Assembly (NCBI GenBank): GCA_020536535.1
Contig: JAHLWZ010000193.1
Span: 1 to 64,000 of the forward strand
Length of the DNA stretch: 64,000 nt
Direction: 5' to 3'
From: Pelomyxa schiedti
Lineage: Eukaryota; Protista; Evosea
The translations under genes were made by a program, and so were the position numbers. This document shows positions 7,001 through 57,191 of this stretch, piece by piece; within the stretch, counting starts at the first letter, position 1; every line of letters begins with the position of its first letter. The notes under the pieces were generated by a model, which saw only the letters and a list, made by a program, of their open reading frames with translations, had not been told where the DNA came from and searched no databases.

Positions 7001-8286
7001 AGAGGCTGAGCATGAACGAGCTGAAGAGGCACGAAAAGAGGAAGACAAAGAAAAAATGGAAGCGGCACTTAGAGCAGAGGAAGAGGCTAAAAGAATTGCT
7101 GAAGAGAAGGAGGTTCGAGAAGAACCTGAGAGACGAATTGCTGAAGAGGAAGCGCAGAAACAAGTGCATGAAATGCAACAGGGAGATCACCAGCGGCACC
7201 GCGTGGAAGAGGAAGATAAGGTTCAACAGTTAGAAGAAAAAAGAAGCGTGGAAGTTCAAAATGAAACACATAGTGGCATCAGAGATGAGGATAGTAAACC
7301 GTTTGAAGTGAAAGAGCCGGGAACAAAAGTGGTTCTGACACCACTTGAAAATGTGCAACAAGTTATTATACCCTTACACGTTGAGACCCTCCCAATAGAG
7401 GTGATGGATGTGACAACAGAACCCACTCCCATAAAACCACAAATCACCGTCAAGTCAGACTCTCCAGAATCCCAAGTCGCCCCCCAACTTGTACAGCAGC
7501 ACACAGCCACACATTTGGAGAATGCTTCATCACACCAAATGGACCAGGAACCGGTTGTGAAGAATGCCTTGGCACACGCTTCGTCACCTCCACAGCCAGC
7601 AATAAAATCTGTGGAACCAGGCAAAGTCAACACGACCATTGCTATCCTAACAAGTGTCGTGCCGACTGTTGTTAGACGTGAACCAGAACACCTTGCACAA
7701 ACCAACATTGTACAGCAGCAGAGGGAGAAGTTTTTATCACTGCAACCAACAATAAAATGTTCAGCAAAGAGCCCTTTAATACAACCCTCTGCTGTCCAAA
7801 GTGCACGAGGAGTTTTCATGAAGGTTTCCATACCTCCTTTATTTGTTTGATTCCTAACTTCTTTACGCAGACCCAAACCGCGGGACCTAACACTAGTACT
7901 GGGGATGATAAACTCTCCCTCAGTCAGGCGGCAGCAGCTCGCCGTCGTGAAGAACTGCGGAGGAAGCGGGAAGAAGAGGAGGCCCGTAAAAGGGAAGAAG
8001 AAGCCATCAAAAGAGCCGAGACCCGCAAGTGGTTTGAGGAGTGGGAACGGAAGCAAAAGGCACAAGTGGGTAATTCCTGAAGGCACAACACCACACCAAC
8101 CAACAACCTTGTTATCAGTAAGTGTATAGTTCTATGGAGCAATATTTCTCTTTTCGTCACATGAACGATTTGTGTCACAGCTTCAGAGAGGCTTGTAGCT
8201 GTGGTTGTGAGGGAGGCGGTGCTTGATGCAACCGTGAAGAAGTGCCGAGGGAGATTGTTGATGGTAGGGATGATAGCCACCGTGTG
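4098..8286 (+). CDS. Large Glu/Lys/Arg-rich coiled-coil protein with a His/Asp-rich N-terminal block (HDKHKHKHDHDHDNDNDNDHEED) and central acidic Glu-Pro repeats. Multi-exon: 4098..4694, 4817..4853, 4891..7823, 7871..~8069, 8181..~8286. Family unknown.
   Basis: In-frame joins verified: …FLGP|LKSDDSMGNPSG|VFSIATSKELLMKRLMEQRQRK…; the 993-aa ORF at 4869..7850; the donor AAG|gtttcc at 7823 and the acceptor cag|ACCCAAACC at 7871; the KREEEEARKREEEAIKRAETRKWFEEWERKQKAQ exon. The last exon assignment is tentative. Confidence 0.6.
6541..6735 (+). repeat. Coding acidic repeat (EPEPELEPQPQ… / AEAEDQA… / PEAEPKPEPE) inside the coiled-coil protein gene.
   Basis: Reiterated gaacc(a/c)gaa / cctgaa motifs with a 6-nt periodicity; the minus-strand ORFs 6466..6749 are antisense artefacts of this repeat. 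Confidence 0.6.
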
Positions 8287-11476: not shown

Positions 11477-14400
11477 ATGGTGCTACGTTTTGTGGGCATA
11501 GTAACTGTCGTGTGGTTTTGTGCAGCAGGACCATGGACAGGTGCGCGAGGTCGGGTGATCGTCTCGATGGGTGGGAGTAAGTACTTTGGAGACGACGGAT
11601 CGAAGATGTACTCGTCAGTTACGCGGCCGGGGGCCGTTGGGGAGTGGGAGCAGTACTGGCAACCGGGGCTGGCCTACGGCGGCACCAAGGACGACTCGTC
11701 CTCGTCTTTTTGTATATCGGCGAGGTCGTGTTCGTCTGACAGTTGGTGCGTCTACCCGTGCTCCTGCTTCCCTGACCTCGCGGATTCTTTGGACTGTCCA
11801 TACCGTATGTGGGCTTTTTTTTTTTTTTTTTTCGCCCAGTTTTTGTATTAAGGGACATCTAGCGTATCCAATGGTTAATACTACTGTGTGGAGTCCTATG
11901 TGGCCGGAGGCTATGAGTGGCGAGTATGACAACGTCACGTTTGTTGTGCTTAGGGGAAATCCAGATGCACTAAACTCGACTTATTTTGGGGGAGTGTACA
12001 TTGTCCAAATGACTGCCACTGATCGTACGTTGGGGGTTAATACCAAACGAGTTTTCCCCGATTCTGGTCACAACTGCGATTTATCCACTTTGCTCAGTGT
12101 ACCAATCGTTCAACAGTTCAGTGACTCGACCATTCACTGGGTTGTGGTGTGTCAAGGCATTTTGTATTGGTACGAGATGTCAACAGAGGCTGGATCATCG
12201 TTTTACCCTAATTCAACTGTACCACTGCTGGCTCACCCTACCTCATTGCTTCCGTCCAGATTTCTTACAGAATTTCCTTCAATATTAGCCGTGGGTGCTA
12301 CATGGGTCCAGTGGTTCTCTCCTGAATATAGTTCATACCCATACAATGTCACTGTTACTGAAGGTGAACTTATCTTCGCAGCCTCGCATCTGGGTATCAG
12401 TTTTCTTGATCGTTTTCATTTTTCTCACCTGGGTGTAGATACGGCCAGCGTCATCACATGTTCTTCAAAGGATGGAAAAGTGTTTATCAAACTCCATTTT
12501 TGTGATGGCAAAAACTTTAATTGGGTCTCTCAAACACTCTATTCGTGGGATGAATCAACTGAGGTCTGTGCACTCACTGTGGATGACCTGCAGGAGTCTG
12601 TTCCACTTGACGACATGATAATATGTATGACGTCTAACTGGCTTCATTGGCTGGTGAGAGACGAATCATATGACTGGCAGGTACATTGACACTGACATTG
12701 TTTTAGCCACCTAATTTAATAGGTATACAATGAGAGTTTTCCATCCAGCCACCCGTCCCTTACTATTATTGCCTCGAAGTACTTTGTCCAATATTCTTTT
12801 TTAGCTGAACGTTACTTAGAGATCAGCAGACCTCGACTTACTCCTTGCTTCTTGCTGATAACTACACATTTTCGGAGATTTATCTTGAATTTTCCAGTTG
12901 TACCGACTTCACAGATTCTTCCCACTGTGTATCACAAGGGTGCAGCTGGTGCTTAAATGTCTGCCTCGATGAATGTCCAGACTGTTCAAGTTACAGCGAC
13001 TCAGACAGTTGCCAGCTGTTGTCTCTTCATCCTTTCCTCTAACCTGCTGATGCACTCAATAGGGATCATTGCGTATGGTGTGATCAAACTTTATCATGCC
13101 AGCAATATTGTACTGTATGCAGTGCTTTAGAGGTTGGCACCTGCAGGTGATTACTCTGTCCTCTTTTCTTTCGTTTCTATTTACACTGCTTCCAGTGTTA
13201 GTGGTTGTATGTGGAGCGATGAGTTGTCAACCTGTATGGCCCTTGAGGACTGGTGCTATTCATGTTCAGGAACCAAGTGCGAATATCCTTGTTTGACCTG
13301 CAACTCAGATATTTGCTCTGCAATTCAATGCCAAAACTGTTCAAATATCACTGAAGAAACCCACTGTTTAAAAAAGTAGATCCTATATCACTCTCCTAAT
13401 TGTGACTCTCGTTCCTAAGCGCAAATTTGTGCACCTGGTGCTCTTCTCTTCAACAATGTCAGTCCAATTCAGCTTTCTCCTCCTACGCTTGTGATTGCTC
13501 CCACGATAGTACTTGCAGCTCTTCTGGCTGCTTTTTAAACACTACCGTCAAGCAGTGTTTATCACGATGTCTAAACCACTCTGCCTATAGCAAGGCATCA
13601 TTTTTTTCTACGTACATTCAGTCTGCTCATTACTCTGAAACCACTGATATTGTCTTTGATGATGATGGCAGTATGACCCTCCTCAGATTTATGTTGCTCA
13701 CTTCTTTTGGCAGATTCTTATATCCTTCATAGAGAGGGGGATGCTCCTCTCCTTCTGAAGGTAAACCCAAGTGGAGAGGTGATACAGTCACCTAAAACCT
13801 TCGATAGAACTGGTTATGGCAAGGCCCTTGCACTTGATCCGGCCACAAGATTACTTTACGTAGTTGGTTCTGGCCAGAACGTGCCTCTTCTCACTGAAAA
13901 TGCGCCGCAAGGACTACTACAATCCATTGTGCCGTCCACTGTTGATGCTGCAATCCTCGCCTATGATATTGATGTAATGAATATTGTTTGGAGTGTGAGA
14001 TGGGGAGGACAGAGTTCAACTGAAGAGTTTATGGACATCGTTGTGATTGCAAATAAATACCGGTATCTAAAGACGTTGTAAAAAGAAACGTAACATGAAA
14101 TGGCCACAGAATTCTTGCAGGAAATGTACCATGCGATTTTCAAATTTTGTGGGGCTCATGTGCTAACTCTTGTGGAACCTCAATGAGTGGTCTTATCCTA
14201 ATTTTTGACAATTCAAATGACTGGAACATGCTGCATTGCGAATATACACCCAGTTACCTTCAATTTCGATCGTCTCCCCACTTATCGTATACTTTAGCCA
14301 CCAGTGATACTGTTGCTGTTACTTTAAACTCCCTTTCTGCCAAAGACAACGACGGTTCTCTTTCTGTTGCCGCTCTCGGAACTGTGCAGACTAGTAATGA

Positions 14401-17400
14401 TATTGACTGTCTTGTTCTTCTTATCTCTTCAGCTGACGGATACAACTTTGTGTCTCATTATACAATATTTGGAAGTGATGTATGGGAATATGGCAACCAC
14501 TAATGAGCTCATCATTGGACAGCAAATCGATTCTTGTTCAAAAATATGGGTAGAAAAAGATATTGCCTATATATCAGGTTCTGGATATGCCGGCTTTGCG
14601 GGGATGCAGAATGGCAAATCTGTGTCGAAGTTCCCTGCTACATTTGTGTCCATGGTGAGATGTCATGACCAAGAAAATTCATTAATTCCTGCAGATGAAC
14701 ATGAAATGGTGGGAAAATAGTTCCCTTCCGCAGGCTGGGTTTTTCATTAGTGGTCTCTCTGCAATAAATGATATTGTCGTATGGCAGGACTATCTATACT
14801 TTGTTGGATCAGAGTCTTCTAGAGGCTTGGAGGCTGCCACTGTTGGTAAGACATAAATTATCAACAAACCTCTATTAACACACGTAGGGCGGTTTGCTCT
14901 GGGTGATGATGGCAGGCTATCTTCTGGACTTGTGGATACGAAAGAGAGCTTTTATTCCAGTGGGTCAAGTTCATTTTCTGACCTATGTGTTGGAACCCGG
15001 ATTTACACGGCTGGTTCCACCACAGCATCTGACTTTATCACAACGTCTACCTACCTCTCAGACGGTATTTTTCTTTCTTCGTTCGTGAGACTGATTATTT
15101 GCTAGGTTTCAAATATGCCCTCATTGTTCTTGCAATTTCTACTGAAGGTTTACTCATTATTTCCTAAATACTCTATCTTAATTAGCTAGAGTCAAACTTC
15201 TGTGTTCCAGTCTTTCCGGCATATCCGGAATCAACAACTGAAATCTTCTTATACTATAACGAAAATAGCAGTGAGCCGGTGATTTACTGGTGTGGTGATT
15301 TACGAACTTGGTGAAAAGTCTCAATTTACCAAGGCCCGTTGTCAAATTTGAGTGGAGCGAAGCATATATGGGGAAGCCCTGCAATTCTTGCGTGAACTAT
15401 ACTGTACAAATTTCGAACCACAACGGCATTACAAATGTACAAACGTATCACTAAAATAAATCTAACAACCTTATTCAGATTTCTGCTGGAACAAATCTTA
15501 CTACTACATATACCTTCCCACTAGAAGAAACTTCATACTGGAGTTGGCATGTAAAGGCTTGTGACAGCTCTACTTGCACTTCATCACTTGAGTCCTCCGT
15601 TTCACTAACTATTGGTGAGTTGTGAAGATATTTGATCTCTTTCTTCTTGGGAGCTTACTTTATTAGAACCACATAAATGGAGTACCGACTTAGCTGATGA
15701 AGGTTGGGCCTCATCTTGGAGTGGTGGCCAAATATCCTTTCCCTCTAATGATGGCACTGACACTACTTTTCTTCGCTTTACTGCAACTGAAGAAACGGAC
15801 TCGTTTGAAATAAATTTTTCCACAGACCACTATCTTCTTGATGTTGGCACTACATGGTAGGTCCAATTAAGTGAAAAAACTTGCAGTTTACATTTCTTAG
15901 GATTTCTCTAAAGATAAGAGCCCTGAATTGTAACAACTTTAAGGTGCTTCTTAACTCATATTCTTCCCATACCAACTTTAGAGTAGGAGGGACCAATTCT
16001 ATTTTTACGTGATTACAACAATAACTATACTCTGTGGAATGCTTCAAGCTCCTTCATCCCACTGGGTGGAGAATGGTTATTCTCTATAAGAAACCAAAAT
16101 ATTTACTTTTCATTAGGTACACTATCTGCTTTCCAATGGATAGAAGTGTAATTACCGTATTCAATTGGGAAATGGATTCCTCAGATGAGTATCAGTCTGC
16201 ATGGACAGTGAAACTTACTCTCTCTGGGTTTCTGAATGATACTGAGGGAGATTTTATGGTGGAGATTGACGACTTCTTCCCGGTTGCCCACTGCGTTCCA
16301 TGTATACAAAATTGGTACTTGTAAAGACAGAGTACCTGAACTCTTCCAGATCTTGGAAATTCTTCTGAGGACAGTGAAGAGGGGCTTTCAAAAAACTCCT
16401 CAGAAGGTATTGACTGGAAAATGCTTGTGGAGATATGTGTACCAGTTGGTGGTGTCACTGCAATTATCATCGTTGTAGGCAGTGTGACAATAACAGCACT
16501 TGCATGTCGACGATTCAACAAGTAGCAACTAGATTTTTACCTTAGTGTAACTCTTGCTAGAAATAAAGAGAATTCAAAGAAACCTGAGCAGGTATGGACA
16601 ACCGGTGTCGAGCTTAATCCTATTGATACCTTCAATGATACTAACTCGATGTGAGTGTACAGTTTCCTTCACTTTCACTTATTTTTGTCAGTTTGGTGGA
16701 ACACTCTGCCTTCCCAATTTCGTTCGACGATTTTACATTAGCCTTCCAATATTCTACAAGACAAGCTCCAGTAGGAGAAAGCATCAAGCAGGATTTAACG
16801 TTGACAAATAACTCCGATTCTAAGTTCACCATTAAGTTCTTCCCACCAGAGAGGTAGTCACTCATTCTTTGCCAAACCTCAAATACTCTGCAGTGCCAAA
16901 GTGTCCTTTAACTTTGACCCTGTTACAGTGCTTCTCAAACCAGTACGTAAATGTGTCTTGGTTTCTTGCTTATCGTCACCCAAGGGAGAAGAAATGGTTG
17001 TTACTGCTACTGCCTTGATAACTTGCACAACAAGGCTAGATATGTATCTAATTGCTGCTGTATCACCACATAGTACTTGGAAGGATCCAATAAAGCACAC
17101 AAAAATACCTGTTGTATTGGAATCCAAGCTGTCAGCCAAGCTAGGTACTATAGCCTGCTGGAGTTATCTCCTAACAGAATCAAAGATCCAGATGAATTCG
17201 TTGTTTTCACCCCGGCAATTGGAGAAGGTAGCTTTGGTTCTGTATACAAAGGAGAGTGGAGAGGTCAGCAGGTTTGTTTCCGCCACATTCAACTCAAGAC
17301 CAACCTGTACAATAAGGTAGCAATCAAGGTTCTCAAAAATCAGTCATTTAATGATGCATCGGTGAAAGCAGAATTCGAGCACGAGGTGGGAGTCATGGAG

Positions 17401-18763
17401 TCTTTCCGTTCACCCTATATTGTTCACTTTGTAGGCATGGTGTCCTTTTACCATCATTTTCTTTGACATGATGGGTAGGGGCTTGTCACATACCTGGGAA
17501 ATTAGCTATTTTAACGGTTTTCATTCATGCTTAGCCTGTAACTAAGCAGAGATAGGAATTTATTGCAAATGGAAGTTTGCGATCCTGCTACCTCAAGAAT
17601 ACATTATCTCTCCCCTTTAAGGTAAAGTGCCTTTTAGATGTTGCCAGAGGTATCCATTACAACCAAGACATGCATTCCACTTATGTACCCCAGGAATGGA
17701 TTACCTTCATCGATCTGCAATTTTACACAGGCACTTTACCTTAAGGGGTTTTTTTCGATCTCCCTTATTTTACTTAGAGACCTGAAACCTGATAATGTAT
17801 TGATGTCCGCTGTAGATTTAACCTCTCCCGTGGCTTGTAAATTGGTTTGCCCTCAGGAGACGTGTACATCAATTTCATAACTGGCCAACAGATCGACTTT
17901 GGCACCACTCGAGATATTAACGTGTCACAAGCAACACAATTCTACACAAGAGGAGTCGGCACTCCCGTTTGTATGCTTTCGTATTCTATTATTACACTGG
18001 TTTACTTGTTTTGTTCAAGATATGGCCCCTGAAATTCTGGATAATGGGAAATACAGCCAAAGTGCTGATGTATTTAGGTAGCCAAAAAACCTCTGTTACC
18101 TGGTAACTGTACGTCACCCCAATTAGTTTTGCAGTTACATTTTGGTCACTTCTCACTGGATTGGATCCCTATGTGGAATCCCGGTTTTCCACAAGCTGGA
18201 AAATCGCGGATTTCATCATTAAAGGAAACGTAGGCCCACAATACTCTCCCATAACCTCACTCTGACACGATTTGCAGAGGCTGGCCATCCCTGCTGACGC
18301 CCCAGCTGATCTTTCTGCACTCCTCTCCAAGTGTTGGGCAGTGGAACCACACGAGAGGCCCAAGTTCTCAGCAATTGTTGTGCAATTGGAGACCAAGTGG
18401 GTGGACTTGATGCAAGACAAGCGGCTCAGGAAGCAAAATCCATTAACCCGCAAGAAAGTAGAACAACCACAGCTTGCCCCTGTTCCGGATACAGAACCTG
18501 CCCCTCTCCCAGAAGAGGGTGGGGTGGCCATGGAGAACCTGATTAAGAAGAATCCGAATGATGGGAATGACACACCTCAAAACAATCACCAAGATGGAAG
18601 AAGCACTCCTGATGTTGACCTTGGGAATCCCCCTGAACCTAAGAAGCCAGGGAAAAAACACACCCATCATCACCATCGGAGACACCACAGGCACAAGGTT
18701 GCTGATTCTGATTCCAGTTCTGGCTCTGCTGGCAATAGCAGTGATGACGATTATGATAAATAA
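11477..18763 (+). CDS. Receptor-like TKL Ser/Thr kinase, paralog A (≥20 exons). Domain order: signal peptide; large Cys-rich ectodomain with possible β-propeller-like repeats; TM helix (~16440-16520, ICVPVGGVTAIIIVVGSVTITALACRRFNK); MSP/PapD-like juxtamembrane module (~16650-17150); kinase domain (17200-18450); His-rich tail (HTHHHHRRHHRHK).
   Basis: Signal peptide MVLRFVGIVTVVWFCAAGPWTGARG. First intron has a gtatgt donor at about 11808 and a T18 tract. Kinase motifs were assembled across introns: IGEGSFGSVYKGEWRG | VAIKVLKN | GMDYLHRSAILHRDLKPDNVLM | IDFGTTRD | YMAPEIL | KCWAVEPHERPKF. The exon-by-exon architecture matches paralogs B and C. Confidence 0.8.
11813..11832 (+). repeat. Poly-T homopolymer (about 18-20 nt) in intron 1 of receptor kinase A.
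   Basis: Run of T at 11813-11832 directly after the gtatgt donor. An analogous T-run sits at the same intron position in paralog B (41375-41392). Confidence 0.9.
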
Positions 18764-39521: not shown

Positions 39522-40667
39522 ATGCACGCGGAGCCACCTTCGGAATACGACCTTCCGCCGTCCGCATCTCCAGCAGCGCCACTCGATTTCCGACAACTAA
39601 CTCCACTCGATAAGTGGTGGGAATATTACTTGCTCGACCCGACCACGAACACGCTGACTCCTAAGAAACGACAGGAGCCAGACTACGTCATGGAGGGTCT
39701 GTATTTGGGAGATCAAGAGAATGCGTACAACCACGAGGTTAGTTCCCGTTCTTTGTAAGTAAGGGGTCAATGGTTAGTGGGAGGTGAAGTTCTGACTCCG
39801 CTCCATGGTGTATTAGATCCTGGAGAAATACCGCATAACTCACGTGTTGTCTTTTACTATGGATGACAAAACACATCACGAGTCCCGCTTCCCGAAATAC
39901 ATCAAATGCGCTACTATAGCGTATGCACTCAATACATTCCAGGAATGTATTCAATTTCGGTAGTGTTGAAGATAAGCGAACAGCAAACATTGCACAATAC
40001 TTCCCAACGGCACTCGCATTTATTGATCAGGGCCGCGCGGCTGGAAGTGTCCTCGTACATTGTGTCTGGGGTATGAGCAGAAGTGCCGCTGTGGTCGTTG
40101 CCTACATTATGTTCAGGTATTCTCCCTTGTGCTGAGTTATAAATGAATGACAAGGTCTTCCACAGGCTTCGTATGAAATTTACTGATGCTTTATCACATG
40201 TTCGGAAAGCTCGCCCTATAGCAGCACCGAACGATGGATTCTTATCGCAGTTGGACGAGTTTGGAAGGCAACTTGCAACAGTGGAAATGAGCGTGCAGTT
40301 CAACACCGTGTGGGGGGAGATATTGCATGTTGTTGGGTCAACAGAAGAGCTGGGGAACTGGAGGCCCACGGAAGCCAACCGAATGACGTGGTTCCCCGGC
40401 AATGTGTGGAAAATTGACCTGCCATTGTATGGGAAGGCCTTTGAGTACAAGTACATTGTGGTGCGTGACGAAGACGGAGAGGATCCAGCAATGAGATGGG
40501 AGGTCTGTGGCAACAGACTCTATGATGGCTCAAGGCGGTTCGTCAGGGACAGGTGGGACTTCAACCCCATCACCCTCGCTGGTATCAGTGGACCCTCCAA
40601 TTTCTTACTTCATCATCCAACTCAGCCGACTACAGGCTCCCCAAGTAATAATGGCTTGAGGACATAA
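39522..40667 (+). CDS. Dual-specificity protein phosphatase (classic HCxxGxxRS DUSP catalytic loop) fused to a C-terminal CBM20 starch/glucan-binding module. A laforin/SEX4-like glucan phosphatase architecture in DSP→CBM order; 5 exons.
   Basis: DUSP motifs EPDYVMEGLYLGDQENAYNHE | ILEKYRITHVLS… | VLVHCVWGMSRSAAVVVAYIMFR. CBM20 exon VQFNTVWGEILHVVGSTEELGNWRPTEANRMTWFPGNVWKIDLPLYGKAFEYKYIVVRDEDGEDPAMRWEVCGNRLY (conserved aromatic and GxW positions of CBM20). Confidence 0.8.
40301..40560 (+). other. CBM20 carbohydrate-binding module within the DSP gene.
   Basis: LGNW…W…FEYKY…W motif pattern typical of starch-binding domain family 20. Confidence 0.7.
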
Positions 40668-41037: not shown

Positions 41038-44000
41038 ATGAGAACCAGAACAGGGGGAGGTGTGTTGGTTGTTGTCTTGACAGTAATCGCCTGCGTGGCG
41101 GTAGTTCCCTGCGGGGCCTGGGGACCGTGCGCGCCGTGCATGACCACGCCCGGGATCAACGTGTGGATCACAGCTAGATTTATAACGAATCTGAGCGTCA
41201 CGCGGCAGTGCGTACCGGTGGTGTGCGGTGGCGTGCCGACCACGGGCTTCGCCGACACGTTGACTGGAATGCGTCAGGTTATACTTATGGACCCATATGC
41301 GCCACTCGCTCAGTTTGCTTGGAACTGGGTTCCTCCTGTATCGACATGCAACGATACGTATGTTCCTCTTCCCTTTTTTTTTTTTTTTTTTCTTTTCCTA
41401 CAACAATTTTAAACCGACTTGGTTGTGGAGGAATGTGTTAGTATAATGCACAAATATTGGAAACCATAACCTTCGTTTAAATTATTCTTTAATGCCAGTT
41501 TTTGAGTTCATGTTGCTTGTATCAGTAATATAATAGACGGACAACAATTATCTTCAATGTAGCAAGCCTAACAAAGCTTGTAACACTAAAAAGTATTTGC
41601 GATTCTTGTACATACACAACGGATTACATCCAGCGTCTGGGAGTATCAGGAGCAACTTATACGCCAGCTGCAGCCACTGGTACAACTGTATCAGTGACTG
41701 GATTGTCGTCGTTTGGGTCTCCACCCCCCAGAGGCACTCTCTCTTACTTCAACGCCACTGTGGGCTGCGCAGCGGCATCTGTTATTACACTATCATTTAC
41801 GCTGGACGTGTGGTGTAAGAACGTCGGAAATGCTGTGAGTGTGTTAGATTCCACTTCTTTTTCACTTTCCTGGGCATGTGCAAAGCCTGGCTGCCCTGCC
41901 TACTGCCACCCAGATCACGGTTACTGTGACCCTTACCATGGTGTCTGTATTTGCACACCACCCTGGACAGGCGCAACTTGTGAGTTTATGTTTTCTTACA
42001 CTCCCACAGTGTGTCCAGGCCAGTATATAACCATGTCTTATTACGTCCCGTATGTAATGTAATATCGTCTCCCCGTAATTGAACTCTTCTACTCCCTCCT
42101 GCAATACACAATAGTGCTTCGATGTATGGGTTGCCACAAGCTCTCACCGTCATGGCTGCTCGCCTCTTTCACAGTATTATGATGGTTGAAACTCGTTATT
42201 TTCTACATTGGAAGGACACTGTCAATGCCAGTGACCCTGATCTTGCATATCCCGTGAACGGAACTGGTTATTTTCCCGGCTTTTATACACCAGGAGCCTA
42301 TCCAATTATGGTGTATGCTGCGTTAGCCTCACCAATCACGTACCTCACGGCAGTGGTAAGACTCTTTTTGCTCTGTTGTTTCTAACATAACCAACCAGGT
42401 TATTGTCAAAGATTGGAGTTTATGTGGTGTAAATGCCACCTGTGGGGATGGTACCTCTAACGATTGTGGTGCTACCAACCAGTGGGGCCAGTGCTACAGT
42501 GGGAAGTGTGTGTGCAACGAAGCCCGTTTCTGGTCTGACTGCTCCCGAGGCTGCTCTGGCTACACAGTTGTAGAAGATGGGAGTGGTGTTGTGAAAAGTG
42601 ATTACCCTCCTGATGGCAGTGTAGCTTCCATGTGCTATCTGAGGAAGAATATTTGCAGATGGCTTATAAGTCCAACTGGGAAATATGATATTATAAAGAT
42701 GAACTTCACCTCATTTGGTATCATGGATCCTGATAAGTTGCTGGTGTTCAGTAGTGACGAGAATGGAGAAACAGACGAGCTCCTGGCTACTTATGGATCC
42801 ACATTTACAGAAGACTACCTTGAAGTAGAGGCCCACCATGTCTTTTTGGAGTGGTCCTCCGGTCCCTACAATACCTACCAAGGCTTTGTACTCGAATACA
42901 GTACCAAGAATAAACCAATTCCCGATGCTGGACTTGCTCTGATATTCTTTGCTGCTGCTGTTGTAGGTTTGGGTGTGGCGATTTGCCTAGCTGTCGGTGC
43001 TAGAATAATCGTAGTGAAACGCAGGAAGAGACTTCAGGCAGCCAGAAACATGCCTGCTCTCAATCTGAAAGATATGATGACTGAAGAAGAGATGGCTTCC
43101 CTTTGTGGGGTAGAGAAAAATCAAGAAATACTGGAGGAAGTTCGGGTTCAGCTGGATAAATATGAACTAACATTTGGCGTCACCGGGTTGTGCCCTGTGC
43201 AGAAGCCAATGTTTGACAAGATTACAATTTTCAACAAGAATGGCTCAACACTGCATTACCAGTTTTCAGTTTTGAACTTGTCTTATCTTGTCGCAACCAG
43301 TATCAGACCTGGGGTGGGCAAAATTCCCCCGCACAAGCGCATGGAAGTTGACGTGGAATGCTCTCTTCTGATGACAACTCGTTTCCAACATCCTATACGA
43401 CTGGATATTGTTAAACCTACTGGTGAGCTTGACAATGAGGGAAAGGAGATTGTGGAAATTCTCGCCACAGCGTACATCTCTGTCACTTTAGAAGGGGAAT
43501 TGTCAAGGTGGATTGACCCTGCCGATTTCACAGATATTTCTGCCCCTATCGCCAGGGGTGGTTTTGGGTAAGATTTACCGATTTCCAGTATCCGTTTAAC
43601 CCCCTTAACAAGGTGTGTATACCGAGGGAAGTATAGAGGTGTCGATGCCGCCCTCAAAATGCTCTTGCACCAGGAAACTTTCAATAAAACCGAAAATGAG
43701 GGGTTTGAAAAGGAATGCAGCTTAATGAATAAACTGAACCATCCTTGTGTTGTCACTTTCATTGGAGCATCCCATGTCCCTGGTTCCTCTCCCTCATTCC
43801 CCTCCTCTCATCTCATTACTGCATCTAGGAAGATTTTGCATCTGCTGTGAGTGGATTCCATTTGGTAGTTTGAGCTCTCTACTCAAAGCTGAGGGAGTTT
43901 TTGACATTCCTATTCACCGCGAGTATTTCTTGATCAAGTGTGCTCTAAATACGGCTGAAGCTTTGGCATATTTACACACAATGAATATTCTGTATCGTAA

Positions 44001-45025
44001 GTATTCATCTGTATTCAACAACCCTTACACTCGCAGGTGATCTGAAATGTTCAAATGTTCTAGTCTGCTCGCTGTCACTTGACGCGGACGTTAATTGCAA
44101 ACTCACCGGTATGGTTGCGGTTGGAAAGTATACTACAACATTCACGTAAACTTCAGATTTTGACACTGCCCGCAATGTGGACAATCCAAGTTAGAATCTT
44201 GTCAAACACCTGTGTTCCTAACTTCTTTGCAGATCTTGTTATGATGTACACAACCAAGCTGGGCACCGGTATCTTTATGGTAAGCATGACCAACTACACA
44301 GAAGTTTAACCTTCTCCAAGGCCCCTGAGCTGCTAGCGCCATGTACTGGCTACAACAACAAAGTAGACACATACAGTTACTCCCTTTGCTTGTGGGAAAT
44401 GTGGACGCGCCAAGAGCCATGGGCAGATGTTACACCCGAATGGGCTGTTCGCAAAATGGTCAAATCAGGGCAGAGGCCTCCACTGGACAAAATGGACCCC
44501 CCAGCCCCCCCCTCGATCCTCGATCTTATACAGAAGTGCTGGCACCAAGACCTCCACGCAAGGCCAGCGTTCCCCGATATAGTAGAGATTCTAGAAGACA
44601 TCAAGGCCACTTACAAGGACCGCCTTAACGTAGAAGAAAGCGATTCAAAGAGCGAGGGCCATCACAAGAAGCATCACAGGCATCACCACCACAAGGGTAA
44701 GAAAGGGAAGAAAAGCCAAAGCAGAAGTCGCAGCCGCAGCAGGAGCGCAAGCGCCTCGCCAGCCAGTGCCAGTGCCAGTGCCAGTGAAAGTGAGAGCAAG
44801 AGCAAGAGCAAGAGCGGCACCGGAGCCCACAAAAAGCACTCCAGCAAGAAGCACAAGAAGCACGAGAAGAAGAGCGCCAAGTCCAAGTCCAGCCACAGTG
44901 ATAGCCACAAGAAAGCCAAAGGCAAGAAGCACAACAAAGGGCACAGCTCCAAATCCCACAAGCACGGTTCCTCCTCCCCCTCGCCCTCCCATTCAAGCCA
45001 CAGCAGAGGATCCTCATCCTCTTGA
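41038..45025 (+). CDS. Receptor-like TKL Ser/Thr kinase, paralog B. Domain order: signal peptide; Cys-rich EGF-like segment (…CDPYHGVCICTPPWTGATCEF); CUB-like module; TM helix (LALIFFAAAVVGLGVAICLAVGARIIVV, ~42920-43010); MSP/PapD-like module; kinase; His/Ser/Lys-rich tail.
   Basis: ATG at 41038; signal peptide MRTRTGGGVLVVVLTVIACVAVVPCGAWG; intron 1 has a gtatgt donor and a poly-T tract at 41375-41392. The 353-aa exon 42510..43571 holds the CUB-like stretch (CYLRKNICRWLISPTGKYDIIKMNFTSFG…), the TM helix and the MSP-like stretch (…SIRPGVGKIPPHKRMEVDVECSLL…). Kinase motifs: GGFG|KVYRGKYRG…AALKML | DLKCSNVLV | DFDTARN | CLWEMWTRQEPWADV…CWHQDLHARPAF. Stop TGA at 45023-45025. Confidence 0.8.
44700..44990 (+). 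repeat. Coding low-complexity tail of kinase B ([44 protein letters not shown]…) including a hexanucleotide microsatellite (gccagt)n at 44764-44790.
   Basis: Direct reading of the sequence: (gccagt)4-5, then (gagagcaag)n. The antisense ORFs 44645..45324 are artefacts of this repeat. Confidence 0.7.
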
Positions 45026-45268: not shown

Positions 45269-48200
45269 ATGCCCCGGAGCGCCTCGTATGTCGTTGGCGT
45301 GTCAACTTTTGTCGCTGCGGCCACCGTCCTCCTCCTCGTACAATTAATCTCGGGCGCCGTGGGTACGACGCCTTACTGCATCAACGTCGTCGGCTACTTC
45401 CCGTACAACTTCTCGTACCCCGACTGGTACCACGTCATCCCGGTTCCGATCGTGTCGTGCGACGTCGTCAGCACCGCGTTCATCGACGAAGGATACCTGT
45501 CGCCGGCGTACACGCCGCAGATCGACGGCGTGTACCGTACGCTGAAGCTCGCGTGGTGGGTGTCGCTAAAGACCACGCCCTCGCCCTCTTTGCCGAGGGA
45601 CGACAGAGGAGTGTTCTACTACGACGGCTACGAGACTGGCGTGCACAACGGCGTGCGGGTTCGGTTACCCGCGGAGCAGGATGACTTTGCTAATCTGGGT
45701 GGGGGTGCTGATGTGGATTATGGGACTGCGGGTGACTCCTATGGTGCTTCTGTGAACGAGCCGAGGTACTACCCTTACTCGATGGAGTATGGCGCTGGAC
45801 GGCCCAGCGTGTTCACGACCGTGGACAATGGCGAGGATGGGGATGGATATGAGCATGTGGAGGTGCGGGATATTACTACTCGCGCTGGATCCTCTGATTC
45901 AGAGTCGTCGTCGTTGTCGTCTTCCGACTCCGACTCCGACTCTGACTCTAGCTCCGAATCTGATTCCGAGTCGGAGTCTAGCTCGTCATCTTCGGAAGAA
46001 GTATTTCCCTGTTTCTTCCCGCCATAAGCACTAATCGTAGTAAAGGTAGTGCAAATTCCATTATACAAGAGGGCTAACGGCGTGCACTTTGCTGCTGTTT
46101 GGACTGCTTTTTCAGTTGCAAAACCTATTTAGTATGCCATTTCCCACTAAAAGAAAATTCTCCCTTAAGTGAGCCCCTAGCATGTTCTGCACACAACAAA
46201 AGTCCGTTTCAAGTAACAGTATTCTAACCTGTGTTCAGCACCTCAATGACGGTCACTGGACTAAGCGCATCGGGCCAGGCTCCTACTTCAGCTAGCTTCT
46301 TCAATATCACTATTTCGTGCCAGGAACCAGCTGTTGTAGCAGCATCTATGTCTCTTATGCTCAGTGACTCTTCATCTATAGTCACCTTTGCCCCTCGATG
46401 GATGTGCTACACACCTGGTTGTCCTTCTTGGTGTTCATTACATGGGGTCTGTGACACCCTACGCGGAACTTGTGTATGCAACGAAGGATGGGAGGGCACT
46501 GATTGTGCGATAAAAGTTGTGACAAACTGGGTCTTTTGCCCCCAAGACCCGATCATCGTCTCTTATGAAATACCGTGAGTTCTTGCACCCTTCCAAAGTG
46601 ACTTGAATAACTCAACTCCATCAGGTACACCACAAGTGGAGTGACTGGGACAGGCAACTCAATGTTTATGACAATCGTCACGCCTTTAACCCCTATAGCA
46701 TATGATTATCGCTATTTCATGACCTGGGCTACTGTTGTTCCGTACCTTGCAACGGAGGGATATAACAAAGATTACTCCGGCACTCATCTGACACCAACGT
46801 ACTTGGCTCCAGGGTCGTATTATATGAGGGTTTCAAATGACCTGACTGATACTGTTGTACTACTGAAGCAGATGACAGTTAAAAGTTGGGCAGCCTGCAA
46901 TATTTCTGCAACTTGCGGCAACGGCACCAACAACACTTGCAACAGCGAAACCGGTAAAGGCACCTGTGTAAGTGGTTCCTGTCAATGTGCTTCTGGGCGG
47001 TTTTGGTATGACTGTTCCAGGGGCTGCTCTGGCCTTGCTTTATCGTCCTCAAAATCCGGAGAAGTGAGGTCCGACTACCCAACAAGCGGTAACATTGATG
47101 ATATGCGTGATTCTAGTGTTATGTCAACCTGCTATTGGCTTATATCCCCACCCGATAGCTATGACGAAATTGTACTCAATTTCACATTTGTGGGACTGGA
47201 CTACATTGGGGTACTTTACGTATACAAATCTGATGAAAATGCTTCTGTTGGTGAACTTGTTATGACTATTAACAGACTGGCTCCAGCGCCTAAGGGTATC
47301 AAAACTCGGCACGTCCTCGTTGTATACGAAAAACTTGCCACTATGAGTACACATGGATTTGCTCTTTCTTACTATACACATAACATACCCCTTTCTGGAA
47401 TCGCAATCGGTTTCACGGTATTCTGCAGTATCCTTGGGGGGTTGATACTGGCAACGGCAGCTGGAATTGCCATTTACTTCCTTGTAAAACGACAAAAACG
47501 GTTGAAATTGCAAGCTATGAACGAGCCAGCTGTTGAAGAAGATATGATGACACCCGAAGATCTTGCTCATGATAGAGAGAAATTTGAAGGGCAGAAGGAA
47601 GAATTCGTGGCTGCTGGCTTCCAAGTGGACAAGACACGATTAATGTTCTCTTTGAAGCAAACCGATCCCTTCCCAATAAGAGAACAGCGGGAGGATCTTC
47701 TGAGTATATCTAATAACACGGGAAGAGATGTACAATACTGTATTTTCGTTCCAAAACAAGAATTGCTGATGAAGTTTGCCGTGAAACCGGGCAAAGGAAA
47801 AATTCCAGCTGGCGCAACCATGGTGGTTGAGATTAAATTGGAACTATTCTACACAACCCATTTTGACTACCCCATCCGAATTGAAATTACTTCCTCCAAC
47901 GGCACAGTACAATGCATGCACATAGACGTCAAATTTGAAGGCGCACACTCTGTGTGGATTGATCCAGAAGATATTCGCTTAGACCAAGAAATAATTGCAT
48001 CTGGAAGCTTTGGGTATTTAGCCATGCTCCCATGTTTTAAATACTGGGTAGCTCACCTGAATTAGGAGTGTTCACCGGGGAGCCTACAAAGCGCAGATGT
48101 TAGCTATTAAAGTACTAAAAGATCAAGAAGGGTTAAGTGATAAAGATATCGAAGAGTTTGAATCTGAATGCAAGCTCTTGAATCAAATTCACCATCCAAA

Positions 48201-49837
48201 GATTGCCCAGTTTATTGGAGCTTCCCACATTCCAGGTGAGGCACTCCCATGACATACACATGGGTGTTTAATCTTAAAAAGGTAAACTATGCATATGCAC
48301 TGAACTTGTGCCAAGTGGCAATTTGGCAGCTTTTCTAAGATCTCCAGCGGAGATACCCTTTATTCTAGTGCTTAAATGGGTTCAGAACGCTGCTGAGGCG
48401 TTGAAATTCTTACACCAAAACAAAATTCTTTATGGTTCGTCCTGCAACTTTTGTTGACTGAAGTTTTAAGTATCACAAGGTGACCTGAAATGCGCAAATT
48501 TGCTTCTTGTCTCCACAGCAATAGATGCTTCAGTGAACTGTAAACTAACTGGTTGAACTCCTCCTTCCTGGAAAAAAACTAATCTTTTCTAAAGATTTTG
48601 GCACTGCTCGCACTGTTGAGGATATTGGTGCGTAACTGCCACTTCTCCCTCTGCCCCCTTAACGTTGTCCAGATCAACCCAAACAGTACATCAGTCCACA
48701 AGGAACACAGGCTTACTTGGTTATCTACTTTTTCGCAGCAAGTTCTTCTGTTTAACTATAATCTTTGTAGGCTCCCGAAATTCATAGAAATTCCAAAGAA
48801 GCAGAAAAAACTCAGTTGAACTATGCCGTAATCTTTTCTTTCCTTTTTCTTTCCTCTCAAAGCCCCCTTCACTCCAAAAGATCGATGTTTACAGCTTTGG
48901 CATTTGCATGTGGGAGATGTGGGCTCGCCAAGAACCTTGGAACACGTTGCTTTTATGGGACATCGGACCCGCAGTTGTTGCCGGGCAGAGGCCGCACATA
49001 TCGTCGCGGTGCCCCGAGATGTACGCGGAACTAATGAAGCGATGCTGGGCTGATACTCCCAACGATCGCCCACACTTCGACACGATAAACAAGGAGTTGG
49101 AGTTCTGGATCAAGCCCGCGATAGAGTACGTGAGGATGAACGTGCAGAAGCACAAGAAGGGCGTCCTGACGGTCAACACGTTTGCTCCCACGAAAACCAG
49201 CGGCGCCAAGACCAAGACCAGCGACGCGTTCTCAATCAACAGCAGCGGCTCTGGGTTCGCCAGCAGCATATACAACTTTGCCAACAGCCCCACTCCCACT
49301 GGGACCCCCAGCTCCAACTCGGCGGCCGACGCCAAGGCCGGCGGCGCCAAGACCAGCGGCAGCAACGCCATGACGAACTCCCCGGCGTCGAGCAGGACGT
49401 CCAGGGACAAGACAGGCCGGGCAAAGACATCGAGGACGAACAGGGGCAAGACAGGCGGGGGAAGGGACGATGACGGAATTGAGATGGAGCCGCTGGGCAG
49501 CAAGAAGACAGCGTCGGCTGCGGACGAGGCCACGTACGAGTCGCTGTCTGAGGAGCAGAAGGAGGAGGTACGGAAGCTGGCCGCGATCGTGTCTACCAGC
49601 AAGAAGCACGGGACCCAGGCACTGTCGAACACGTCTGGGGGCTCTGGGGTCAGCAACGCCACCACAACGTCTGGCGACACAAACAAGTTCAAGCAGCTCG
49701 ACGCCACGCTCAACATCCGCGGCCGCACGGTGATCAGCGGCACCACCGCAACATCGACAACAACGACACCCACACCACCAGTGTCAAGTCTGGCCACAGC
49801 CAAAGTAGTCCCCACTGGCAAGAAGGACAACGTGTAG
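45269..49837 (+). CDS. Receptor-like TKL Ser/Thr kinase, paralog C, immediately downstream of B. Same ectodomain–TM–MSP-like–kinase layout; exon 1 carries an acidic (SD/SE)n stretch; C-terminal Ser/Thr/Gly-rich tail.
   Basis: ATG at 45269; signal peptide MPRSASYVVGVSTFVAAATVLLLVQLISG. Exon 2 (46231..46578) aligns with the paralog B EGF-like exon (CSLHGVCDTLRGTCVCNEGWEGTDC). The 474-aa exon 46641..48065 carries the CUB-like stretch, TM helix (IAIGFTVFCSILGGLILATAAGIAIYFLV) and MSP-like stretch (KFAVKPGKGKIPAGATMVVEIKL). Kinase exons: SGSFG|…YKAQMLAIKVLK… | DLKCANLLL | DFGTARTVEDI | APEIH | ICMWEMWARQEPW…CWADTPNDRPHF. Confidence 0.8.
45895..45996 (+). repeat. Acidic (Ser-Asp / Ser-Glu)n coding repeat ([37 protein letters not shown]) at the end of kinase C exon 1.
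   Basis: tccgactccgactccgactctgactct… periodicity. A gtattt donor directly follows at ~45996. Confidence 0.6.
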
Positions 49838-52782: not shown

Positions 52783-55700
52783 ATGCACACGCTTTTCAAA
52801 AAAAAGAGTAGCAGCAGCCAAAACAGCCCGACGTCAGCAGCGAATGGTGCTAGTTCCTCGTCGTCGCACCACTCGATGTCCTCGTCGGCCAACTCCATCA
52901 ACATCGCCAGCGTGTCGGCGTCCACCTCGTCGTCGTCGTCAGGCACGCTCTCCGCCTCGGCCCTTAACGCCACTTCGTCCCCGGCACCCCCCACTTCCCC
53001 AACCATTGTCTCGTCCTCGGGCATCACTATCCCAAAGCTCCAGCTCCCCGCCTCTTCGCCCTCAGCCCCAATCCCAATCTCCTCCTCCTCGTCCTCCAGC
53101 AACCCTGCGACTTCCTCGTCGATCTCGACGCCGTCGCAGGCCGCGCACCCCAGCAAGTTCCTCAAGCTGCCCCACTCGCACTCCAACAGCAACAGCGGCA
53201 GCACCAGTGTGCCGGCGGCCACGTCGCAGCCCAACTCCCCGACGCTGCCCCCCGCGGCCTCCTCGTCGTCGTCGCCGGGCGGCGGTGGCAGCAACACACC
53301 CCAGTCCGGATCGCCGTCGCGCCCGCGCAAGGGCCACCACCAGGGCAAGACATACTCGATGGCCGGGGCCGACGGCGTGCCGCAGCAGGTCACGATGCCC
53401 AACACGGCGCGCGGCTACCACCGGGGGGAGGAGGAGGCCTGGGGGAGCTACGACCAGCAGTCGCAGTCGCCGTCGCCGTCGCCGAGCCCCCCACTGGATA
53501 TGCCCAGCCCCCGGCGGGGCCCGTCCAGCACCACGCCGCCTACGTCGAAGAGCCCCAGGGACCGGGAGCGAGACAGGGCGAGGAGCCCGCACAGGCACAA
53601 GGGGCCTCCTGCGCCGACCGAGCCGATGGTGGTTCTCACACACTCCACGGGGTGCCTGCCAATGTCCGACAAGGAGGGCAGGATGTCCATGTCGTCTTCT
53701 GGCAGTTCGAATGTGGACGCTGGGATGCTGTCGGCTAGCATGGGCACTGGTGTCATGGAGAGGCCAATGAAGCACAACTCACACCATCACCATCACCGCC
53801 ACCACACAACAACCAGGCACGGCAGTGCCAATGTTGGGGAAGACAGCGGCAGTGGCAACAGCACCCACCCGCGGCGGCGCTCTTCTTCTTCTGTTGTTCC
53901 TCCGTGTCTGTCGCCGTCCATGTTTGTTGGTGCGGATAGACCTGGTCAAAACCAGTCTCTACTCCCGCCTTCCTTAGCTCTCGCTTCAGCTTCGTCACAT
54001 GACAGACACAGTGGATCCAAGAGTATGAGATCAAAAACTGGAAGCAGCAGAAGAGTGAGTGTAGGACGGGAAATGGGAGAAGATACTGACTCTGGAGCTG
54101 ATATTGAGATTGGTGACCCTGAACAAACCATTTCCTTCCTGGACAAACTTGGTGGGAATTAGCTTCATTTATTTACTCTTTGTTCACACCCAGTAGGAGA
54201 AGGTAACTTTGGTTCCGTTTGGAAGGCACAACATGTCTCCGGAAAGATACTTGCTGTCAAGAAGGTATTGCACCACCATCCAATCACAGTAACCAGTCCA
54301 CAGGTTCCTCGAGATGAAGCTCTTGAAATTACCAAGGAAGTCGATTTCATGAAAGACCTCAGAAAGAGTTCTTACCTTGTAAGGTGAGATTACTTTTTCT
54401 CCATCTTCTTCTAGACGTAAAAACAGGTACTATGCGAGCTGTAATGTGAAGACAGAACTGTGGATTGTGATGGGTATAACATATATTTTTCACTCGTTCT
54501 TGTGGTTAATGCCTCATTCTAGAGTATTGTGCTGCTGGCAGCTTACGAGGAATGATGAAAATTTGTGGGGTACCCTTCCTTTTTTTGGTTTTTTAATTCA
54601 ACGTCACTTAGCGAAACCTGTCTGAAAACGAGATTGCTGTTGCTACATGTCATATGCTGAGGGGTTTACATTGTCTACATGCCTCAAATAAGCTACACAG
54701 AGATATAAAGGTAGTTACTTTTGTATCTATTTTACATTTTTGATTCGTGAGAGGCTGCCAACATTTTGGTTGATGGGAATGGGATTGCAAAACTTGCTGA
54801 TTTTGGTGTGAGTGGTAATGGCAAACAACATCACACCATGATTGGAACACCCTTCTGGATGGCCCCTGAGGTTTCCCCATGCTCCCTGTAGTTGCCTTAA
54901 CACGTCAAAGATTATTCAAGACCTTGGATATGATGAACATGCTGACATTTGGTCTCTGGGAATTACATGCATTGAATTGGCTGAGGTAACGAATCGTGGG
55001 TGTAAAAAATGTTCCAACCTGTGCCAAGGGAGAGCCCCCGCACTTTGACGTTAATCCTATGAGAGCAATGCTACAAATACCCAAATGGGATCCGCCAACA
55101 CTGACACACCCAGATAAGTGGTCCCCAGCGTTCAATAACTTCCTTGCTCGATGCCTCGTGAAAAATCCTCACCAAAGGTCGTACCATTTACTCCCCTCTT
55201 TGTACTCACCTTTCAATGAAGACCGCTAAGTGCTGATTTACTGATGGACCCTTTTGTGAAACCTGCAGAAAATTCATCTCTTCTTGGTGAATATTTACTT
55301 CCTCAGTAATCTATTTTGACTCCAATCAGAACTAGTACAACTACAAGAACAAATGCGCCCATTGCAGGCACCGGAGCCAACAACGCCTCAACCCTCAAAG
55401 GACCCCGGTAATCTTGCCTCTTCACATGGGTCAAACTCGTCGTCATCATCCATTCTTGGAAACAAAGGCGGCAGCGTCATGTCTACTCCAGTAGGCGACA
55501 GTGATGCCGACCTCGACATGAGGGGGCTGAGTGGAATTTGGAGCAAGTTTGTGCTAGATAACCCAGCACTGGTGGGAGGAGCAGATGCGGAAGGTGAGGG
55601 TGATGATGAGTTGGAGGTAGGTGACGAAGCGGAAGATGGAGGCACAACAACAGAGGGTCAGAATTCTGACCTACAGACACCACGCCACTCCAGCTGCCTC

Positions 55701-56240: not shown

Positions 56241-57191
56241 ATGGCGCAGAACGAGGACGCCGATGATTTGGGAACTGGATGGAAGCCAGTGCACAGGGGT
56301 CCCGTCCCCGATAAGATAAGGGTCCCACCACCGAGGCCTAACGAGCCCCTCTTCGAAGACGAGCCCGCGGCACCCCCCGGTAGCCCCCTGGAGGTATCGG
56401 GGCTCCTCGGCAAGCCCACGCGCACACCCGCGCCCGCCCAGCCCCCCGCTGTGGGACCGGCCACAGACGCCCCCACGGGGCTGGTCACAGCAGAGTGGAG
56501 CGGCAGAAGCGACACTCGCTCGGACAACGGGGACACGTACTGCGGGGAGTGGGTGCAAGGGAAGCGGGACGGGTGGGGAGAGCAGCTCTCGGCCCGCACG
56601 GGCAACTGGTTCGAGGGCCTGTGGCGCGCCGACGACCAGGTGATTGGGACGAGGTGGAACTTCGACAAGGAAAGGGGCGTCGTCGGTGTGTACGAGGGCG
56701 AGAGGGGCCATGACGAGAAGAAGAGGTTCAGCCAGGGCTGGGGCGTCCTGAGGGAGCATGTTTGCACCCCAGAGGAAAAAATTGCCTGGCAGACGTGGCG
56801 GGAAAACCCCCCACCGGCAGAATTATCGCCGCCTACTGCATCGTGTGCGGAACCTCCTTACAGAGTTTCTCGGAAGGACCTGGTGACGGTGTATGAGGGA
56901 AACTGGGAGAAAGGGAAAAAGCATGGGAAGGGCACGTACACAGACCCAAAAACGGGTGATACCTATGTTGGGAATTTTGTGATGGACCATAAATGTGGCG
57001 AAGGGAGGATGATGTTCCAGGATGGTGGGACTTACATCGGCTGGTGGGACCGTGACAAGTTCCATGGGAAGGGTGTCCGTCTGTTTGCTGATGGACAGAG
57101 ACAAGGTGGACTCTGGGAGCATGGTAGGTTTTTGTACCCTGAAGCGGACACTCCAGGGCTTCCGGGCCAAGAGGTTCATATTACCTTGTGA
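56241..57191 (+). CDS. MORN-repeat protein (second one in the window) with a Pro-rich N-terminus. Modelled as single-exon; the C-terminus may continue via an intron.
   Basis: 316-aa ORF. MORN units YCGEWVQGKRDGWGEQ…, YEGERGHDEKKRFSQGWG…, YEGNWEKGKKHGKGTYTDPKTGDTYVGNF…, YIGWWDRDKFHGKGVRLFADG…. Confidence 0.7.
   Translation: MAQNEDADDLGTGWKPVHRGPVPDKIRVPPPRPNEPLFEDEPAAPPGSPLEVSGLLGKPTRTPAPAQPPAVGPATDAPTGLVTAEWSGRSDTRSDNGDTYCGEWVQGKRDGWGEQLSARTGNWFEGLWRADDQVIGTRWNFDKERGVVGVYEGERGHDEKKRFSQGWGVLREHVCTPEEKIAWQTWRENPPPAELSPPTASCAEPPYRVSRKDLVTVYEGNWEKGKKHGKGTYTDPKTGDTYVGNFVMDHKCGEGRMMFQDGGTYIGWWDRDKFHGKGVRLFADGQRQGGLWEHGRFLYPEADTPGLPGQEVHITL

Follow-up and report, generated by a model that had tools for sequence, protein, structure and literature searches.

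The stretch analysed here, 64,000 nucleotides of contig JAHLWZ010000193.1 (the window), carries three paralogous single-pass receptor-kinase genes, designated A, B and C, all on the plus strand and located by tblastn of the window with the hand-spliced gene B protein. Their products share one order of parts: a signal-peptide-like start, an ectodomain, a transmembrane helix, basic residues, a module, a kinase domain and a low-complexity tail. This report concerns the module, an immunoglobulin-like (Ig) domain of the PapD-like superfamily; sequence comparison showed that a single copy of it is the obligate partner, on the N-terminal side, of the kinases in an amoebozoan TKL clade. An EGF-like domain was found in each ectodomain, together with a weak CUB-like match in gene B. 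The N-termini of genes B and C were signal-peptide-like, in agreement with their P. schiedti orthologues, and the helix was followed by KRRKR in B and KRQKR in C, so that by the positive-inside rule the module would lie on the cytoplasmic side of the membrane. The features of TKL-group receptor kinases were present, namely a signal peptide, a single helix, a cytoplasmic kinase of PK_Tyr_Ser-Thr type and the catalytic residues Lys, Asp, Asn and Asp.

In all three genes the stretch between helix and kinase was in frame and reached the glycine loop of the kinase, as the original prediction had it. A hidden Markov model (HMM) that excluded the window sequences and rested on 87 homologues from other organisms was run against all 1572 six-frame pieces of the window. 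It matched at only three places, the modules of gene C (E 1.5e-32) and gene B (E 8.4e-28) over the positions given in table 1 and the two larger module exons of gene A (E 3.3e-13 and 1.5e-11); since this leave-out profile found the A, B and C modules and nothing else, the observation lies far beyond chance. The interval proposed at the outset, 43150–43420, falls inside the gene B module but covers only its central two thirds and begins one base out of frame, and the length of about 100 residues assigned to it has to be raised to about 125. The string that had been quoted for gene A, 'VLVSCLSSPKGEEMVVTATALI', runs unspliced across a 42-nt intron; the spliced sequence, VSFNFDPVTVLLKP joined to GEEMVVTATALI (in longer form, VSFNFDPVTVLLKP joined to GEEMVVTATALITCTT), is closer to the motif P..G.l.pG....v.v.

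The window is eukaryotic DNA, and its introns are very short (about 39–100 nt) and bordered by GT..AG. The splice model of gene A was set by comparison with P. schiedti P0055; several of its introns are open in frame without a stop, and a naive reading of open reading frames (ORFs) is therefore misleading there. The introns of gene A at 16421–17436, measuring 39, 41, 40, 42, 41 and 45 nt and all GT..AG, were strikingly uniform. The tail of gene B (44640–45025, +) was of low complexity with much His, Lys and Ser (as in HHKKHHRHHHHKGKKGKK...SRSRSRSRSASAS...), and that of gene C (about 49100–49837, +) likewise of low complexity and rich in Ser, Thr and Gly, which explains why ORFs overlap on the two strands in these tails.

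Table 1. Positions of genes A, B and C and of their parts in the window.
Feature	Position	Strand	Basis or remark
Gene B, whole (from signal peptide through EGF-like/CUB-like ectodomain, helix, module and kinase to a His/Lys/Ser-rich tail)	41038..45025	+	
Gene B, large exon holding helix and module	42510-43567	+	
Gene B, transmembrane helix LALIFFAAAVVGLGVAICLAVGARIIVV, then KRRKR	42930..43013	+	ORF translation
Gene B, acidic juxtamembrane linker from helix to Ig module, about 39 aa	43014..43130	+	translation
Gene B, type I Ig module (MTT ... LEGELSRWIDPADF), PapD-like (ASH/MSP superfamily)	43131..43526	+	
Gene B, TKL-type kinase domain	43527..44640	+	manual GT..AG splicing gave one open frame; tblastn with P. 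schiedti P0054
Gene B, exons after 43567	43613-43782, 43829-43996, 44037-44108, 44157-44189, 44233-44279, 44321-45025	+	
Gene C, whole	45269..49837	+	tblastn exon chain to KAH3765976.1; N-terminus; EGF domain
Gene C, transmembrane helix IAIGFTVFCSILGGLILATAAGIAIYFLV, then KRQKR	47400..47486	+	
Gene C, PapD-like Ig module, type I (YTT ... FEGAHSVWIDPEDI)	47601..47975	+	profile E 7.7e-35
Gene A, whole, 5' end approximate	11571..18763	+	tblastn; translations
Gene A, transmembrane helix ICVPVGGVTAIIIVVGSVTITALAC	16433..16507	+	
Gene A, PapD-like Ig module, type II (CTT ... ESKLSAKLDPDEF)	16692..17200	+	four exons
Gene A, module exons	16692-16853, 16894-16942, 16985-17144, 17186-17200	+	three introns, 40-42 nt

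The P. schiedti orthologues were identified by tblastn as KAH3759681.1 for gene B (34–49% identity along the exon chain), KAH3765976.1 (1316 aa) for gene C (44–83%) and KAH3767846.1 (1758 aa) for gene A (27–69%). Judged by these identities, the source of the window would be an archamoeba akin to P. schiedti but distinct from it. Module identity was 53.7% between B and P0054 and 73.9% between C and P0053 (KAH3765976.1), while the kinases of B and P0054 were 59.1% identical; for helix plus linker the values were 34.7% (B and P0054) and 67.6% (C and P0053), this being the least conserved segment of gene B relative to its orthologue. The module is conserved between orthologues about as well as the kinase and better than the membrane-proximal linker. 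Among the paralogues, the module of B was 36% identical to that of C and 22% identical to that of A.

The orthologues P0053, P0054 and P0057 matched PF07714 at 1e-40 to 1e-55, and for P0054 the Pfam match to PK_Tyr_Ser-Thr was at 1.4e-44. The kinase motifs of gene A were canonical (VAIK, HRDLKPDN, DFG). In the spliced translation of gene B a glycine loop ARGGFG, AALK, YRDLKCSN, DFD and APE were read; HRD is thus replaced by YRD in B, and by YGD in C (kinase at about 48000–48900), and DFG by DFD in B. The same changes were seen in the P. schiedti proteins (YRDLK and DFDTARN in KAH3759681.1, YGDLK in KAH3765976.1). Since both retain all of the catalytic residues Lys, Asp, Asn and Asp, B and C are probably unusual kinases that are nonetheless active.

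For the fold of the module, the gene B copy was modelled with AlphaFold2 from an alignment of 90 sequences (pLDDT 95, pTM 0.84), in which the gene A row carried about 10 C-terminal residues from a superseded splice model without effect on the results. All of the top 50 Foldseek matches of the model were PapD-like at probability 1.00, with OCRL ASH, HYDIN, CFAP74 and CEP192 ranked ahead of Scs2, the major sperm protein (MSP) and VAP. The PapD-like superfamily takes in the ASH domains (Hydin/CFAP65/CEP192/OCRL) as well as the MSP domains of VAP. By this model the module is a seven-to-eight-stranded s-type Ig beta-sandwich of the PapD-like superfamily that folds independently, and the structure thus agreed with what had been proposed and not with an unrelated Ig or fibronectin fold lacking MSP similarity. 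The sequence hallmarks of the superfamily were also found, an Asn ending strand B (l.l.N.s) and P..G.l.pG....v.v across strands C'–E; in the numbering of the gene B module, used throughout, the corresponding columns are N34 (97%), P59 (93%), G62 (69%), P66/G67 (about 51%) and V72/V74, and B, C and the spliced form of A have all of these.

The placement of the module within the superfamily was examined by profile searches. A profile of the 90 sequences, compared with the sequences in the PDB, matched Chlamydomonas Hydin at 5.8e-64 when summed over many repeats (best single repeat, i-E about 1e-3), followed by CFAP65 (2.3e-19), mouse Hydin (2e-18) and FAP47 (9e-17); FAP65, FAP74, FAP81, DLEC1 and CFAP221 were matched as well, and VAP-A (0.003), OCRL ASH (0.004), Scs2 (0.007) and nematode MSP (0.09) formed a weaker tier. 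The window copies matched Pfam families of the PapD-like clan weakly (Ig-CFAP74_4th, Cep192_D6, HYDIN_VesB_CFA65-like_Ig and Ig_CFAP65_4th, E 0.005–0.1). Individually, 30 of the 90 members matched Ig_CFAP65_4th, 29 HYDIN_VesB_CFA65-like_Ig, 27 Cep192_D6, 15 Motile_Sperm (E<0.01, best 5.8e-8), 10 OCRL-like_ASH and five ASH; the homologue P0194 exceeded the gathering score of PF22544 (26.8 against 25.5). The search for PF00635 in the window copies that had been suggested gave no match in either B or C at a limit as loose as E<=10, and among 10 type-I homologues it gave two matches of 18.3 and 16.6 bits, below the cutoff of 25.9 bits. Alignment of the family profile with the MSP domain of VAPB by hhalign (VAPB sequence confirmed against PDB 3IKK) reached 80.6% probability over strands B–E. 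The prediction of an MSP/PapD-like domain was accordingly borne out as regards a PapD-like, MSP-like s-type Ig sandwich, whereas an MSP domain sensu stricto was not supported, given the missing PF00635 match in B and C and the position of Hydin and CFAP65 far ahead of VAP-A and MSP in the profile search. Large multi-repeat proteins (P0129, P0131, P0132, P0134, P0145 and P0160, with 5–10 matched stretches each) were also retrieved by a profile made from three sequences, and P0129, the only one of them scanned with Pfam, was HYDIN/CFAP65-like, an independent sign that the module is nearest to the ASH/Hydin branch. By these profile comparisons the module appears to be nearer to the ASH/Hydin branch than to MSP proper, and it constitutes a distinct family without a Pfam model of its own.

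To collect homologues, 1.84 billion representatives were searched exhaustively by HMMER with the three-sequence profile; this yielded 370 cluster representatives at E<=1e-3, of which 95 reached E<=1e-10. Word-indexed searches with the gene B module alone and with the 90-sequence module alignment returned no relatives, and with helix, module and kinase of B they returned only kinase domains of about 30% identity. Architectures were counted by simple motif scans in the best 150 of the 370 representatives, 139 of which had a single full-length match. A hydrophobic helix lay upstream of the module in 97 of these 139, mostly 30–50 residues away, and a glycine loop right after the module and an HRD-like catalytic loop were each found in 103; in full-length homologues PK_Tyr_Ser-Thr followed directly behind the module at 1e-40 to 1e-56. 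Organisms were looked up by name for 30 homologues, which comprised nine from Pelomyxa schiedti, three each from Mastigella eilhardi and Mastigamoeba balamuthi, two from Pelomyxa sp. JSP, and dictyostelid sequences from Heterostelium album, Tieghemostelium lacteum and Acytostelium subglobosum, the remainder being metagenome or SRA assemblies and two repeat proteins; no D. discoideum or Entamoeba sequence was among these 30. Two sub-types were distinguished, type I ('[YM]TT ... LEGxxSxxLDP', in B and C) and type II ('CTT ... ESxLSTKLDPDE', in A). In the dictyostelid proteins P0186 and P0194 the module stood close to the N-terminus and no helix was detected ahead of it, and because these forms keep the module, it travels with the kinase and not with the membrane anchor. 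The pairing of module and kinase is kept in both Archamoebae and Dictyostelia, by single-pass receptors as well as by soluble kinases.

Besides N34 and P59, the near-invariant residues of the family are F14 (96%), T81 (99%), T82 (81%), E120 (74%), S124 (92%) and D128 (97%). F14, N34 and P59 make up a generic ASH/MSP core signature; specific to the family are T81/T82, in the loop after strand E, and a segment that follows strand G, L-E-[SG]-x-L-S-[TD]-x-L-D-P-x-E. The spacing from this segment to GxGxxG was 7–9 residues in all 106 homologues in which the motif was located (8 in 76 and 7 in 28 of them), which gives the connector pattern L-E-[SG]-x-L-S-[TD]-x-L-D-P-x-E-I-x7-9-GxGxxG. With a connector this short, the last Ig strand passes into strand beta-1 of the kinase with practically no linker. 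The generic s-type Ig topology puts the C-terminal end of strand G at one pole together with the E-F loop, and T81/T82, E120, S124 and D128 would therefore cluster where the N-lobe of the kinase sits. The association of the module with the kinase, the fixed length of the connector and the invariant residues at the kinase-side pole together make rigid packing of the module against the N-lobe the most likely arrangement.

The explanation that we favour overall, with somewhat better than even confidence, is that the module is a PapD-like Ig domain packed on the kinase N-lobe as a regulatory platform for protein–protein interaction. In the receptor forms it would keep the kinase roughly one Ig domain off the membrane, with some 40 residues of acidic linker on the membrane side. 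Such a platform could act in two ways. MSP and the MSP domains of VAP dimerise, and the receptors may dimerise through the module in the same manner. Docking at a sheet edge is common to VAP with FFAT, the ASH domain of OCRL with Rab8, and PapD with a pilin strand, and a peptide or partner may likewise be docked on the sheet edge of the module. By either mode, engagement of the ectodomain would be coupled to activation of the kinase.

Several points weigh against this explanation. N-lobe packing, dimerisation and docking are drawn from connector length, conservation and Ig topology, and T81/T82 were placed next to the C-terminal pole from the generic s-type topology and not from coordinates. 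No Pfam family reached its gathering threshold on the window copies, and with organisms looked up for 30 of the 370 homologues the taxonomic range is a lower bound. The module might also be a passive rigid spacer that sets the distance between membrane and kinase and offers no surface for binding or regulation. Ig domains commonly play such a part, and the distance from helix to module is fairly uniform at 30–50 residues; yet the soluble dictyostelid kinases keep the module although they have no helix, the near-invariant polar residues T81, S124 and D128 and the fixed connector exceed what a spacer needs, and conservation of the module between orthologues about equals that of the kinase, so that we consider a mere spacer unlikely. 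Slightly less probable still is a classical ASH domain that aims the kinase at cilia, centrosomes or microtubules, or that binds a Rab GTPase in the manner of OCRL and Rab8. The closest relatives of the module are the ciliary central-apparatus proteins Hydin, CFAP65, CFAP74, FAP47 and DLEC1, with CEP192 and OCRL ASH besides, and Pelomyxa and mastigamoebids are flagellated. The pairing with the kinase is, however, retained in Dictyostelia, which to our knowledge have neither cilia nor centrioles; most members are anchored 30–50 residues from a membrane helix, an arrangement ill-suited to an axonemal role, and the invariant T81, T82, S124 and D128 differ from Hydin-type repeats. A Rab GTPase may nevertheless be bound.

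According to the suggestion that came with the original prediction, the module would be an MSP domain of the VAP kind, able to bind FFAT motifs and so to tether the receptor to its partners where membranes are in contact; this was assessed residue by residue. The FFAT contacts were taken to be VAPB K45, T46, T47, R55, K87 and M89, as in the VAP-A/ORP1 structure; VAP residues are said to have been implicated in FFAT binding by Kaiser and colleagues in 2005 and by the K87D/M89D mutant. At the columns aligned with VAPB by hhalign, the family has F/Y in place of K45 (58%), V/P/L in place of T46, P in place of T47 (80%) and E/S in place of R55; at the K87 and M89 equivalents, placed by an estimate of strand register and not by alignment, K/R occurs in only 39% and A/E/V are found, respectively. 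Gene B reads Q-S-V-L-R and then R and D here, which gives S, V, L, R, R, D for the six equivalents. Tethering of the VAP type is therefore unsupported, and the ASH/Hydin profile matches stand many orders of magnitude above those of VAP; column frequencies and mapping thus speak against the FFAT idea, the module is probably not a VAP-type FFAT receptor, and we hold this alternative to be very improbable. Almost no weight is left for the view that there is no real domain and that a low-complexity or disordered juxtamembrane segment resembles a loose motif by chance: the window copies match Pfam at only E 0.005–0.1 and the word-indexed searches were empty, but chance resemblance is excluded by the leave-out profile result.

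Among the other features of the window, a gene with a catalytic exon of dual-specificity phosphatase type (DSPc, E 3.6e-15; HCxxGxxRS motif) and, after it, a starch-binding domain (CBM_20, E 2.8e-14) lies directly upstream of gene B at 39923–40667 (+), a glucan-phosphatase-like (laforin/SEX4-like) architecture with the phosphatase ahead of the carbohydrate-binding module. A fourth kinase N-lobe fragment was located at 54172–54384 (+; Pkinase E 1.9e-4; tblastn to P0055 residues 1469–1530), with no PapD-like module detected upstream of it and no Pfam match in the 459-aa ORF at 52783–54162 just before it. A MORN repeat match (E 1.6e-11) was obtained for the ORF at 56241–57191 (+). Pfam scans of the other large ORFs in the window were mostly empty; long ORFs of up to 993 aa without a Pfam match include those at 326–2032 (-), 4869–7850 (+) and 25693–26940 (+), among others. 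The first 8 kb are skewed in composition (GC skew 0.27 at 1–2000, AT skew 0.41 at 6001–8000), which suggests repetitive or low-complexity coding sequence.

Known Ig domains of the ASH and HYDIN-CFAP65 type (PF15780, PF22544, PF24507, PF22076, PF21310) occur in tandem arrays in axonemal or centrosomal scaffolds, or beside a phosphatase/RhoGAP-like unit in OCRL, whereas the amoebozoan module is present in single copy with a fixed connector to a TKL kinase, carries invariants of its own ([CY]-T-T after strand E and L-S-T-x-L-D-P-x-E after strand G) and for most members falls below Pfam thresholds. The PF00635 group comprises VAP-A, VAP-B, Scs2, MOSPD2 and nematode major sperm protein, and VAP consists of an N-terminal MSP domain, a coiled coil and a C-terminal anchor, with no enzyme domain; the amoebozoan module differs in the absence of FFAT-binding residues and, in the window copies, of a PF00635 match. 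The original prediction held a cis fusion of this kind to be unfamiliar. The layout of helix, module and kinase is nevertheless conserved and abundant in Amoebozoa, and a kinase–MSP fusion exists in monocots: according to the review PMC9528087, wheat Snn3-D1 (Zhang et al. 2021) is a soluble, monocot-restricted protein with a kinase followed by a C-terminal MSP domain, which has been proposed to perceive effectors. Snn3-D1 resembles the amoebozoan proteins in joining a protein kinase and an MSP-superfamily domain on one polypeptide and differs in the order of parts, the amoebozoan one being helix, Ig module and kinase, so that the latter are not Snn3-D1-like. The two fusions are likely to be of independent origin.

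The monocot kinase–MSP protein was the sole other published kinase fusion found in the literature, where PF00635 together with a kinase domain led to plant immune-receptor papers only, and no description of an Ig, MSP, ASH or PapD-like module beside amoebozoan kinases was found. The GDT and DRK receptors of Dictyostelium (PMC1420674) and the transmembrane kinases of Entamoeba likewise have a signal peptide, an ectodomain, a single helix and a cytoplasmic TKL kinase, whereas the ectodomains of the window receptors are EGF-like and CUB-like. The Dictyostelium kinome paper lists the receptor TKLs (GDT and DRK families) and describes no cytoplasmic Ig-like module, and the Pyk2/Pyk3 papers do not mention one. 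Homologous proteins are already public and annotated as kinases only. The module is thus a separate family built on a known fold and set in an architecture that is conserved but has not been described, and not a categorically new entity. A further-reaching proposal, that the helix–Ig–kinase and Ig–kinase proteins form an unrecognised class of kinases in which the Ig domain is an obligate, rigid regulatory subunit of the N-lobe and a built-in switch for dimerisation or activation, is possible but doubtful.

The receptor kinases of animals, plants and amoebae arose independently, and the regulation of the amoebozoan ones is almost unknown. A folded Ig domain on the N-lobe would contrast with animal receptor tyrosine kinases and plant receptor-like kinases, whose juxtamembrane segments are flexible, and if the proposal of a separate kinase class were true, transmembrane signalling itself would differ from that through such segments. 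With these proteins the ASH/MSP superfamily also takes in a domain fused directly to the N-terminal side of a TKL kinase. The module HMM can be used to annotate hundreds of regions that are now unannotated, the invariant T81, T82, S124 and D128 provide a short list of residues for mutation, and the dictyostelid relatives may give a genetically tractable system in which to study function.

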